Notes under the pieces: generated by a model
What the model was told of the DNA's origin: nothing
Seen by the model: the letters and a program-made list of their open reading frames with translations, nothing else
Database searches by the model: none
Position numbers and translations under genes: made by a program
Part shown: one piece after another, positions 31,404-33,315 of the stretch
How the letters are laid out: each line of letters starts with the position of its first letter
Position numbering within the stretch: position 1 is the stretch's first letter
Origin: Escherichia coli
GTDB taxonomy: Bacteria; Pseudomonadota; Gammaproteobacteria; Enterobacterales; Enterobacteriaceae
Assembly: GCF_003334765.1 (NCBI RefSeq)
Contig: NZ_QOWT01000027.1
Direction: 5' to 3' (one strand)
Length of the DNA stretch: 57,545 nucleotides

Positions 31404-31880
31404 ATGAAACTCATCAGTAACGATCTGCGCGATGGCGATAAATTGCCGCATCGTCATGTCTTTAACGGCATGGGTTACGATGGCGATAATATTTCACCGC
31501 ATCTGGCGTGGGATGATGTTCCTGCGGGAACGAAAAGTTTTGTTGTCACCTGCTACGACCCGGATGCGCCAACCGGCTCCGGCTGGTGGCACTGGGTAGT
31601 TGTTAACTTACCCGCTGATACCCGCGTATTACCGCAAGGGTTTGGCTCTGGTCTGGTAGCAATGCCAGACGGCGTTTTGCAGACGCGTACCGACTTTGGT
31701 AAAACCGGGTACGATGGCGCAGCACCGCCGAAAGGCGAAACTCATCGCTACATTTTTACCGTTCACGCGCTGGATATAGAACGTATTGATGTCGATGAAG
31801 GTGCCAGCGGCGCGATGGTCGGGTTTAACGTTCATTTCCACTCTCTGGCAAGCGCCTCGATTACTGCGATGTTTAGTTAA
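31404..31880 (+). CDS. ybhB: PEBP/UPF0098 (phosphatidylethanolamine-binding, kinase-inhibitor-like) protein
   Basis: 158-aa ORF with strong RBS aggagg. Confidence 0.85.
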   Translation: MKLISNDLRDGDKLPHRHVFNGMGYDGDNISPHLAWDDVPAGTKSFVVTCYDPDAPTGSGWWHWVVVNLPADTRVLPQGFGSGLVAMPDGVLQTRTDFGKTGYDGAAPPKGETHRYIFTVHALDIERIDVDEGASGAMVGFNVHFHSLASASITAMFS

Positions 31881-32031
31881 TCACTCTGCCAGATGGCGCA
31901 ATGCCATCTGGTATCACTTAAAGGTATTAAAAACAACTTTTTGTCTTTTTACCTTCCCGTTTCGCTCAAGTTAGTATAAAAAAGCAGGCTTCAACGGATT
32001 CATTTTTCTATTTCATAGCCCGGAGCAACCT

Positions 32032-33315
32032 GTGAACACATTTTCAGTTTCCCGTCTGGCGCTGGCATTGGCTTTTGGCGTGACGCTGACCGCCTGTAGC
32101 TCAACCCCGCCCGATCAACGTCCTTCTGATCAAACCGCGCCTGGTACCTCTTCTCGCCCGATTCTGTCGGCAAAAGAAGCGCAGAATTTCGATGCTCAAC
32201 ACTATTTTGCATCCCTGACACCAGGTGCTGCAGCGTGGAATCCTTCCCCGATTACCCTGCCTGCGCAACCTGACTTTGTTGTCGGCCCGGCGGGCACTCA
32301 AGGTGTAACGCATACCACGATTCAGGCGGCGGTAGATGCGGCAATTATCAAGCGTACCAACAAGCGCCAGTATATTGCCGTGATGCCTGGTGAGTATCAG
32401 GGAACGGTATATGTCCCTGCCGCTCCGGGTGGAATTACTCTGTACGGTACAGGTGAAAAACCGATTGATGTGAAGATTGGGCTTTCCCTTGATGGTGGCA
32501 TGAGCCCTGCCGACTGGCGTCACGACGTCAACCCGCGCGGCAAATATATGCCAGGTAAACCAGCGTGGTATATGTACGATAGCTGCCAGAGCAAACGCAG
32601 CGACAGTATCGGTGTTCTCTGCTCTGCGGTCTTCTGGTCACAAAACAATGGCCTGCAACTGCAAAATCTGACCATCGAAAACACGCTGGGCGATAGCGTA
32701 GATGCAGGTAACCATCCGGCGGTGGCACTGCGTACTGATGGTGACCAGGTACAGATTAACAACGTTAACATTCTCGGTCGTCAGAACACCTTCTTTGTCA
32801 CCAACAGCGGTGTGCAGAACCGTCTGGAAACAAATCGTCAGCCGCGTACGCTGGTGACCAACAGCTACATTGAAGGGGATGTGGATATCGTTTCTGGTCG
32901 CGGCGCAGTGGTGTTCGATAACACCGAATTCCGCGTGGTGAACTCACGTACTCAGCAAGAAGCGTATGTGTTTGCACCGGCTACGCTGTCCAACATTTAC
33001 TACGGTTTCCTCGCCGTAAACAGCCGTTTCAATGCTTTCGGTGATGGTGTGGCGCAACTGGGCCGCTCGCTGGATGTTGATGCCAATACCAACGGTCAGG
33101 TGGTGATCCGTGATAGCGCCATCAACGAAGGTTTTAACACGGCTAAACCGTGGGCCGATGCGGTGATCTCTAATCGTCCGTTTGCGGGTAATACCGGCAG
33201 CGTAGATGATAACGACGAAATACAGCGCAATCTGAATGACACTAACTACAACCGCATGTGGGAATACAATAACCGCGGCGTGGGTAGTAAAGTGGTTGCA
33301 GAGGCGAAGAAGTAA
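32032..33315 (+). CDS. ybhC: outer-membrane lipoprotein, pectin-methylesterase-like (CE8 fold) esterase
   Basis: 427-aa ORF; signal peptide with lipobox LTAC; parallel beta-helix-like repeats. Confidence 0.85.
   Translation: MNTFSVSRLALALAFGVTLTACSSTPPDQRPSDQTAPGTSSRPILSAKEAQNFDAQHYFASLTPGAAAWNPSPITLPAQPDFVVGPAGTQGVTHTTIQAAVDAAIIKRTNKRQYIAVMPGEYQGTVYVPAAPGGITLYGTGEKPIDVKIGLSLDGGMSPADWRHDVNPRGKYMPGKPAWYMYDSCQSKRSDSIGVLCSAVFWSQNNGLQLQNLTIENTLGDSVDAGNHPAVALRTDGDQVQINNVNILGRQNTFFVTNSGVQNRLETNRQPRTLVTNSYIEGDVDIVSGRGAVVFDNTEFRVVNSRTQQEAYVFAPATLSNIYYGFLAVNSRFNAFGDGVAQLGRSLDVDANTNGQVVIRDSAINEGFNTAKPWADAVISNRPFAGNTGSVDDNDEIQRNLNDTNYNRMWEYNNRGVGSKVVAEAKK

Follow-up and report, generated by a model that had tools for sequence, protein, structure and literature searches.

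Two genes of Escherichia coli, ybhB and ybhC, lie next to the biotin genes in the 57,545-nucleotide stretch of chromosome analysed here (the window, by which the whole stretch at its full length is meant), and a good part of what concerns them is already established: both genes, both protein structures, the lack of agreement about their substrates and the presence of a phage attachment site between them. YbhB belongs to the PEBP/RKIP family, and its designation as a kinase inhibitor was inherited from mammalian RKIP by homology; we know of no experiment for kinase inhibition by YbhB. YbhC is a relative of the pectin methylesterases of the CE8 family, in whose mechanism the Asp of the QDT motif serves as general acid/base and the Gln of the QAVAL motif is an oxyanion-hole residue. 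As for the DNA elements of the locus, promoters of σS (RpoS) carry a -10 signature made of T-12, A-11 and T-7 together with C-13 and T-6, often without a good -35 element (a consensus taken from the literature), and phages frequently use conserved stretches of the host chromosome as attachment sites. A sequence-only reading of the window had presented ybhB, as a PEBP-family gene that follows bioA and might be co-transcribed with it under biotin control, and ybhC, as the gene of a pectinesterase-like lipoprotein, as one finding; by itself, this re-identifies two textbook E. coli “y-genes” with crystal structures and is nothing new.

The explanation that we regard, as a whole, as likely is that ybhB and ybhC are two unrelated, long-catalogued E. 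coli genes under separate control. According to it, ybhB would be transcribed mainly from its own σS promoter, located in the spacer that follows bioA, so that it would count among the general-stress genes and not the biotin genes, and bioA transcripts would probably also enter it, providing a biotin-dependent expression floor. Two stem-loops would end the ybhB unit, and a 37-nt block that holds the lambda attachment site attB, at a fixed distance before ybhC, would act as the promoter/operator of the latter gene. YbhC, in turn, would be a PemB-derived outer-membrane lipoprotein, with the QDT Asp replaced by Asn throughout its clade and with an envelope ligand other than pectin. What is added here to the established picture are modest refinements, namely the stress-type -10 box, the ybhC-linked block holding attB and the exchange of Asp for Asn across the YbhC clade, and parts of them may already stand in the published literature.

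Expression and probable promoter of ybhB

The time-course RNA-seq comparison of wild type and an rpoS deletion collected in Table S1 of PMC10654073 shows ybhB to be RpoS-dependent on three occasions, entry into stationary phase (adjusted p 4.8e-4), high osmolarity (7.3e-4) and cold (6.0e-12), which places it within the 156 genes that respond in all three conditions. RpoS dependence under the three stresses is also seen for ybgS, whereas bioA is significant in no condition (0.15, not available and 0.77) and ybhC only in stationary phase (PMC10654073). In another study, ybhB was co-induced with rpsV, osmC, yciEF, yjbJ and dsrB, a set that its authors relate to σS (PMC2685091), and in Sphingomonas the EcfG general-stress regulon includes a gene of the YbhB/YbcL family (PMC6599016). 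With published dependence in three stresses, the expression of ybhB is that of a member of the RpoS regulon.

As an expression matrix, the first 49 samples of the public E. coli compendium stored with PMC6892915 were used. In them, ybhB correlates with ybgS (r=0.76) and also with bioA (r=0.44), but the correlation with bioA vanishes once ybgS is included (partial r=-0.05), to be compared with r=0.88 between bioA and bioB; between ybhB and ybhC, it is negative (r=-0.30). The level of ybhB mRNA lies above that of bioA by a mean of 1.0 log2 and a maximum of 2.9, the lowest value being 0.29 below it, and both genes are high in the same four samples. Considering the near-zero partial correlation and an RpoS dependence that is not common to bioA, co-regulation of ybhB with the bio operon was not found in these data.

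How much could the biotin genes nonetheless contribute? The comparative set comes from a scan with one genome per species, from which the best 80 Enterobacteriaceae ybhB loci were kept, and in nearly all of these, as likewise in Pantoea, bioA and ybhB are adjacent and on the same strand. Upstream of bioA there is a candidate bio operator, an inverted repeat which we take to be the operator of BirA. The scan of the bioA-ybhB spacer gave no terminator-like site, and its RNA folds like shuffled sequence (z=-0.81); without a terminator, polymerase that has passed bioA should run on into ybhB. Read-through from bioA into ybhB is thus likely and a biotin response of ybhB by this route possible, and to this extent the biotin link drawn in the sequence-only reading stands. 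A stronger version would place ybhB (and perhaps ybhC) functionally in the leftward bio transcript, with expression set by BirA and a function tied to biotin metabolism. The conserved adjacency, the terminator-free spacer, the operator and the fact that ybhB mRNA is never appreciably under that of bioA in the 49 samples, with both high in the same four, would all suit it. Even so, we hold it to be unlikely, given that the partial correlation with bioA is about zero where bioA and bioB remain tightly coupled, that ybhB depends on RpoS and bioA does not, that the spacer carries a conserved -10-like box of its own, that the bioA-ybhB interval carries other genes in several genera, that ybhC is set apart by attB and by inserts and that no role of a PEBP fold in the biotin pathway is known. 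The literature retrieved for bioA-ybhB co-transcription or for ybhB together with BirA consisted only of strain-engineering papers that use the site. Most simply, the expression data can be read as the output of a stress promoter in the spacer, added to a baseline that bioA read-through supplies.

That spacer contains a single conserved element. Among the Enterobacteriaceae loci, the bioA-ybhB spacers are highly diverse, mostly 35-74 nt long, and when 77 distinct ones were anchored on the sole word that they share, the hexamer TACACT was found to carry 2.0, 2.0, 1.4, 1.9, 2.0 and 2.0 bits, and its neighbours (G/A then C/T before it, T after it) 0.9-1.1 bits, with most of the remaining positions at or below 0.5 bits and no conserved -35 element among the 77 spacers. 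In the form TA[CAT][AG]CT it is present in 81/81 loci, a count that comes from related species and does not represent independent events. Its distance to the next start codon is 23-39 nt and that to the bioA stop 2-39 nt. The box stays ahead of a DJ-1/PfpI gene (226 aa) that has been inserted in six genomes of Buttiauxella, Phytobacter and Cedecea colo, and in Erwinia rhapontici a related box, GCTACGCTTTT, heads a reductase-DJ-1/PfpI-ybhB cluster. On the strength of this conservation, GGC-TACACT-TT is most likely the σS-type -10 box of a promoter belonging to ybhB, for which it is put forward as a candidate.

TACACT might instead be a signal of another kind, for RNA processing or stability or for the binding of a protein, with the RpoS dependence of ybhB being post-transcriptional or indirect. 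The lack of a conserved -35 region and the silence of the promoter scan at the site speak for this, but the hexamer fits the key -10 positions (T-12, A-11 and T-7) and the σS positions C-13 and T-6, the box lies at 23-39 nt from the ATG, as said, and a ybhB mRNA level up to 2.9 log2 over bioA is less simply explained by the processing of a common transcript, all of which makes a non-promoter role decidedly unlikely. An independent ybhB promoter was what the sequence-only reading had named as speaking against co-transcription with bioA, and the spacer box, the RpoS dependence and the partial correlation largely supply it. The expectation of a biotin gene is thereby corrected: with a conserved promoter element that would be its own, ybhB seems to belong to the core of the general stress response.

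The ybhB-ybhC spacer and the lambda attachment site

The 151 bp between ybhB and ybhC begin with two stem-loops (Table 1). The segment 31870-31960 folds at -26.1 kcal/mol (z=-4.78); other Escherichia (L004, L005) carry compensatory exchanges, C>T and G>A, in the stem-loop at 31888-31912, and at the place of the second, other genera have a different hairpin (GCCGATT...AATCGGC). Rfam models searched across 31300-33300 gave no match. Beyond the hairpins, 31963-31987 matches 25/25 the sequence which we recognise as phage lambda attB, and no such match is expected by chance. Its 15-bp core is identical to the annotated lambda recombination core (27724-27738), the flanks being different. The attachment site was absent from the sequence-only reading. 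Since it lies in this spacer, ybhB and ybhC are the genes that flank the lambda prophage, and most papers naming both of them are about strain engineering because attB lies between them.

This widely used engineering site is also a natural prophage site in about one third of E. coli genomes: the ybhB-ybhC junction is intact in 3,487 of the 5,426 complete genomes and not intact in about 36% (1,938 of the 5,425 that have a match). The split matches that were sampled break at the core edge (window positions 31984-31985, query 205-206), and in H19, the sole interrupted genome inspected, prophage tail genes are directly beside the break. In three loci of the comparative set, two from Escherichia (L005, L006) and one from Cedecea colo (L080), the sequence diverges right after the 15-bp core and the locus has no ybhC, a pattern that suggests integrated elements at the attB site in other species.

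The attachment site is completely contained in a 37-nt block, CTTCCCGTTTCGCTCAAGTTAGTATAAAAAAGCAGGC, that is conserved across genera. In aligned spacers from genera in which ybhB and ybhC are adjacent, the block has the nearly invariant consensus CTTCCCGTTTCGCTCAA(G/C)TTAGTATAAAAAAGCAGGC within surroundings that have diverged, and it was found with 0-6 mismatches in 29/81 loci searched. Where the genes are separated, the block stays with ybhC: in Kluyvera, Kosakonia and Superficieibacter, 1.4-4.6 kb have been inserted between ybhB and ybhC and the block is just 5' of the latter, and the copies of Salmonella and Enterobacter, with 0-1 mismatch, are found 42-45 nt 5' of the ybhC start, the hut operon separating the two genes. 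In the corresponding loci (L082 and L083), hutH, hutU, hutC, hutG and hutI are found between ybhB and ybhC, and ybhJ, ybhI and ybhH, the genes that come after ybhC in E. coli, are missing, with pgl, ybhA and modCBA next to ybhC instead. The linkage of ybhC to the locus is much less stable than that of ybhB: no ybhC occurs within 6 kb downstream of ybhB in Citrobacter, Salmonella, Enterobacter and Klebsiella, and the Pantoea locus lacks it.

Because it holds the -10-like words TAGTAT and TATAAA, the block is most likely the core promoter or an operator of ybhC, as a candidate. A further, less likely idea is that the attB core doubles as the -10 region of this putative promoter, which would explain its conservation across genera. 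The presence of attB within a conserved block looks like another case of a phage attachment site in conserved host sequence. In a lysogen, the core is retained but phage DNA takes the place of what lies upstream, so the control of ybhC should change; insertions at attB probably alter it, the block being tied to ybhC. The promoter scan gave nothing in the 37-nt block. For the block, σ70, σE, σ32, σ54, CpxR, PhoP, IHF, CRP and FNR were considered and set aside, no convincing match to their consensus sequences being found, and an RNA element in the ybhC leader was likewise discarded (the 17-genus alignment folds at -2.2 kcal/mol and has no covariation).

A ybhB-ybhC operon was rejected on account of the hairpins, attB, the inserts in other genomes and the uncorrelated expression. 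The presentation of both genes as one finding in the sequence-only reading therefore has to be given up: hairpins, attB, the ybhC-linked block, the correlation of -0.30 and the lack of adjacency elsewhere make them separate units.

The YbhC protein

YbhC is identical to PDB 3GRH over residues 29-427 and scores 731 bits (cutoff 436) with its NCBIfam equivalog model, NF007822; its only Pfam domain is a weak, partial match to PF01095 (Pectinesterase, E=3.3e-10). The protein starts with the signal MNTFSVSRLALALAFGVTLTAC22-S-S, whose lipobox is L19-T-A-C22 (Cys22 codon at 32095-32097), and LTAC or LSAC is present in 26/26 YbhC orthologues. With Ser at +2, sorting to the outer membrane is predicted by the general +2 rule, and YbhC turns up in papers on the outer-membrane-vesicle proteome. 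The next-best solved relative is 4PMH (E=8.6e-60), deposited as a pectinesterase and presumably the rice-weevil enzyme, and the closest active-type relatives are about 45% identical to YbhC.

The comparison within CE8 covered solved pectinesterases, 54 diverse full-length relatives from a library of 1.8 billion proteins and 26 Enterobacteriaceae orthologues. Among CE8 relatives, the canonical GxYxE, QAVAL, QDT, DFIFG and LGRxW motifs are found almost everywhere. YbhC has QNT for QDT (Q251-N252, Asn codon at 32785-32787), a replacement shared by 26/26 orthologues (at least 67% identity) and by a library representative at 67% identity; a representative at 49% identity has ENT, and the next relatives, at 46-49% identity, have QDT. 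In the YbhC clade, moreover, GxYxE has become GxYxG and DFIFG, though retaining its Asp, has become D(I/L/M/V)V(S/A/V)G (DIVSG in YbhC). The Gln of QAVAL is Pro229 in Escherichia (4/26 sequences) and Gln in the other 22 orthologues, and LGRxW is LGRSL in Escherichia YbhC. The nucleophile Asp (D285) and the Arg (R345) are kept in all YbhC orthologues. In terms of CE8 membership, YbhC thus has the fold, D285 and R345 and is missing the QDT Asp and the QAVAL Gln. With the PemB model NF041901 it reaches 407 bits, below the curated cutoff of 700, and does not qualify as a PemB by that model. The carbohydrate-esterase fold and the lipoprotein nature read from the sequence alone are confirmed by Pfam, solved structure and lipobox, as the PEBP fold is for YbhB; the replaced catalytic residue had been overlooked.

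Could YbhC still be an active PemB-type enzyme, demethylating pectin or oligogalacturonide fragments of dietary origin in the gut? The CE8 β-helix of 3GRH, the strong match to 4PMH, the 407 bits with the PemB model, the retained Asp285 and Arg345 and a lipoprotein signal like that of PemB would be expected of such an enzyme, but every orthologue examined has Asn at the QDT position, where Asp is found in 4PMH and nearly all of the other relatives, Escherichia has Pro for the Gln of QAVAL, two further motifs have become GxYxG and D(I/L/M/V)V(S/A/V)G, and the PemB score is far under the cutoff. In the summary given by PMC11982519, YbhC showed no pectin demethylation (Eklof 2009), neither this activity nor palmitoyl-CoA thioesterase activity was confirmed after an initial screen, and the in vivo substrate is unknown. 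An active pectinesterase is therefore very unlikely.

The name given by RefSeq and NCBIfam would make YbhC an acyl-CoA thioesterase, after an enzyme screen in which palmitoyl-CoA hydrolysis was reported (Kuznetsova 2005, via PMC11982519). Thioesters having a better leaving group, the loss of the general acid with the Asp-to-Asn change might matter less for such an activity. We find this scarcely credible, in view of the later lack of confirmation in that source, of a lipobox with Ser at +2 that predicts an outer-membrane location, where acyl-CoA is unavailable, and of a fold that is unrelated to known thioesterase folds.

Decay of ybhC into a pseudogene was discarded, as the open reading frames (ORFs) are intact and dN/dS is 0.07-0.13, which means strong purifying selection. 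From its residues, YbhC reads as a retooled PemB-type lipoprotein, not a conventional pectin methylesterase, and most likely it would bind or slowly process a carbohydrate or ester ligand of the envelope that is not pectin. The clade thus offers a selectively maintained pectinesterase relative without a canonical catalytic residue, which narrows the biochemical search.

The YbhB protein

The sequence of YbhB is identical to those of PDB 1FJJ and 1VI3 (“Protein ybhB”), which gives it the PEBP fold, and it matches PF01161 (PBP) over model positions 6-135 of 135 (E=6.9e-42), NCBIfam NF007609 with 343 bits (cutoff 226) and TIGR00481 with 196 bits (cutoff 57.75). Its N-terminus has no hydrophobic signal sequence. 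The residues of the anion pocket, as listed for PEBPs after PMC8793217 (DPDxP, a downstream His and GxHR), are intact in the translation (D52-P-D-A-P56, H63 and H114-R115). That review considers the function of YbhB open, argues for a possible enzymatic role of PEBPs in the metabolism of small molecules and remarks that their gene neighbourhoods are seldom conserved (PMC8793217); together with PMC11982519 for YbhC, it bears out what the sequence-only reading said about the unsettled substrates of both proteins. The RefSeq product names, “kinase inhibitor” for ybhB and “putative acyl-CoA thioester hydrolase” for ybhC, are misleading and have no sequence support.

A recurrent neighbour was seen in some loci. 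A DJ-1/PfpI gene lies between the -10 box and ybhB in L069, L071, L074, L078, L080 and L081 (Phytobacter, Buttiauxella and Cedecea colo), and in Erwinia rhapontici (L086, 2265-3988) the same interval holds a reductase gene of the ADH_N_2 (alkenal) type together with a DJ-1/PfpI gene. The Erwinia cluster is compact, with overlapping or 12-nt junctions and ybhB as its last gene. The DJ-1/PfpI-ybhB link comes from a small sample within Enterobacterales, the homologue search having given only close Enterobacteriaceae relatives. Combined with the control by σS, the DJ-1/PfpI and reductase partners hint at carbonyl/electrophile stress, and it can be imagined, as a quite unlikely proposal, that YbhB is the PEBP component of a σS-controlled module against reactive carbonyl or electrophile stress. 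If that were true, the target of bacterial PEBPs would be a small metabolite made or repaired under such stress, and a family with a conserved molecular function that is debated from bacteria to plant florigen would have its first concrete lead on the biochemical side.

Locus layout and other features of the window

The window is E. coli chromosome, 29900-33600 being 100% identical to several complete genomes, and a match to the segment is found in all 5,426 complete E. coli genomes. RefSeq annotation on the identical locus has bioD-bioC-bioF-bioB on one strand and bioA, ybhB and ybhC on the opposite one, followed by ybhJ and ybhI; the gene identities given by the sequence-only reading agree with it and with the PDB identities, and the 58-bp distance between bioA and ybhB was exact. 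Against other genera, dN/dS is 0.03-0.07 for ybhB and, as given above, 0.07-0.13 for ybhC (with saturated dS), and because of this purifying selection both are real genes, not chance ORFs. The features are collected in Table 1.

Table 1. Position of the genes and DNA elements of the bioA-ybhB-ybhC region in the window (block copies in other species are numbered within their own loci)
Feature	Position	Strand	Description	Basis or context
Candidate bio operator	30012-30051	.	40-bp imperfect inverted repeat, 15-nt arms 93% complementary	bioB-bioA interval, ends 5 nt before bioA ATG
bioA	30056-31345	+	adenosylmethionine-8-amino-7-oxononanoate transaminase, 429 aa	RefSeq on identical locus; TAA at 31343-31345
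bioA-ybhB spacer	31346-31403	+	58 bp	without terminator-like structure
-10-like box GGC-TACACT-TT	31370-31380 (hexamer 31373-31378)	+	25 nt 5' of ybhB ATG	sole conserved spacer element
ybhB Shine-Dalgarno	31393-31399	+	AAGGAGG, 4 nt before ATG	sequence
ybhB	31404-31880	+	ATG start, 158 aa, cytoplasmic (predicted) PEBP-family protein	PF01161, PDB identity
Stem-loop 1	31888-31912	+	11-bp stem, GCCAGATGGCG/CGCCATCTGGT type, without U-tract	8 nt past ybhB stop
Stem-loop 2 (weaker)	31920-31955	+	AAGGTA...TACCTT	fold; abuts conserved 37-nt block
37-nt block	31953-31989	.	CTTCCCGTTTCGCTCAAGTTAGTATAAAAAAGCAGGC; contains attB completely, plus TAGTAT and TATAAA	cross-genus conservation
lambda attB (BOB')	31963-31987	-	CTGCTTTTTTATACTAACTTGAGCG; 15-bp common core 31971-31985	25/25 exact match
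ybhC Shine-Dalgarno	32022-32025	+	GGAG, 6 nt before GTG	conserved (C/A)(T/A/C)GGAG, 17 genera
ybhC	32032-33315	+	GTG start, 427 aa, predicted outer-membrane lipoprotein with CE8 β-helix	PDB 3GRH identity
REP/BIME-type tandem palindromes	33320-33520	.	downstream of ybhC	fold z=-5.44
37-nt block copies	L082 5922-5958; L083 5919-5955			Salmonella, Enterobacter

The ORF called by program for bioA begins at 29945, 111 nt 5' of the annotated ATG (30056), and spans the bio operator and the bioB start; this longer ORF is an artefact of ORF calling. Downstream of ybhC, the REP/BIME repeats create a spurious ORF of 135 aa with an internal repeat (33372-33779), and within them lies a match to the Rfam model naRNA4 (33384-33454, minus strand), which has a second match at 1655-1725 (plus strand). 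Elsewhere in the window, a Moco (molybdenum cofactor) riboswitch is matched at 22257-22401 on the minus strand (103.6 bits, E about 1e-24), and the small-RNA model ES036 (CssrF) is matched on the plus strand at 6961-7003 and 23666-23707, just over the gathering score, probably through derivation from repeats.

Weight of the evidence and comparison with known systems

Several points weigh against the explanation favoured here. The RpoS dependence of ybhB seen by RNA-seq could in principle be indirect, and the 49 samples are part of a larger matrix, with conditions that are not identified. The consensus promoter scan flagged neither a ybhB nor a ybhC site; no -35 element is conserved, both promoters are predictions, and no σ factor or regulator could be assigned to the 37-nt block. 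The loci compared are not independent, and the argument from conservation rests on flanking bases that have diverged to saturation. The biochemical roles put forward for YbhB and YbhC are hypotheses. Finally, older literature reportedly counts ybhB among the ORFs of the leftward bio transcript, and the bio operon sequence paper of 1988 reportedly listed an ORF after bioA.

Compared with what has been described, the two proteins of the window are the same as YbhB (b0773; YbhB/YbcL subfamily of PEBP/RKIP) and YbhC (b0772; PDB 3GRH) of E. coli K-12, with no difference. The paralogue YbcL (PDB 1FUX, E=1e-49) is presumably a periplasmic protein and differs from YbhB in its expression: in the data of PMC10654073 it is not RpoS-dependent, unlike YbhB. 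With the PemB of soft-rot Enterobacterales, YbhC shares a lipoprotein signal, the CE8 β-helix, the nucleophile Asp and the Arg; the pectinesterase 4PMH has the same β-helix, Asp and Arg, and keeps the QDT Asp where YbhC has Asn. The predicted ybhB promoter resembles known σS promoters in the C-13 and T-6 of its spacer box and in the lack of a conserved -35 element, as judged against the literature consensus, and in the RpoS-dependent expression of the gene in three stresses. As for the attachment site, there is no difference from the primary lambda attB between gal and bio, with which the spacer shares the exact 25-bp BOB', the identity with the attP core and the natural interruption at that core.

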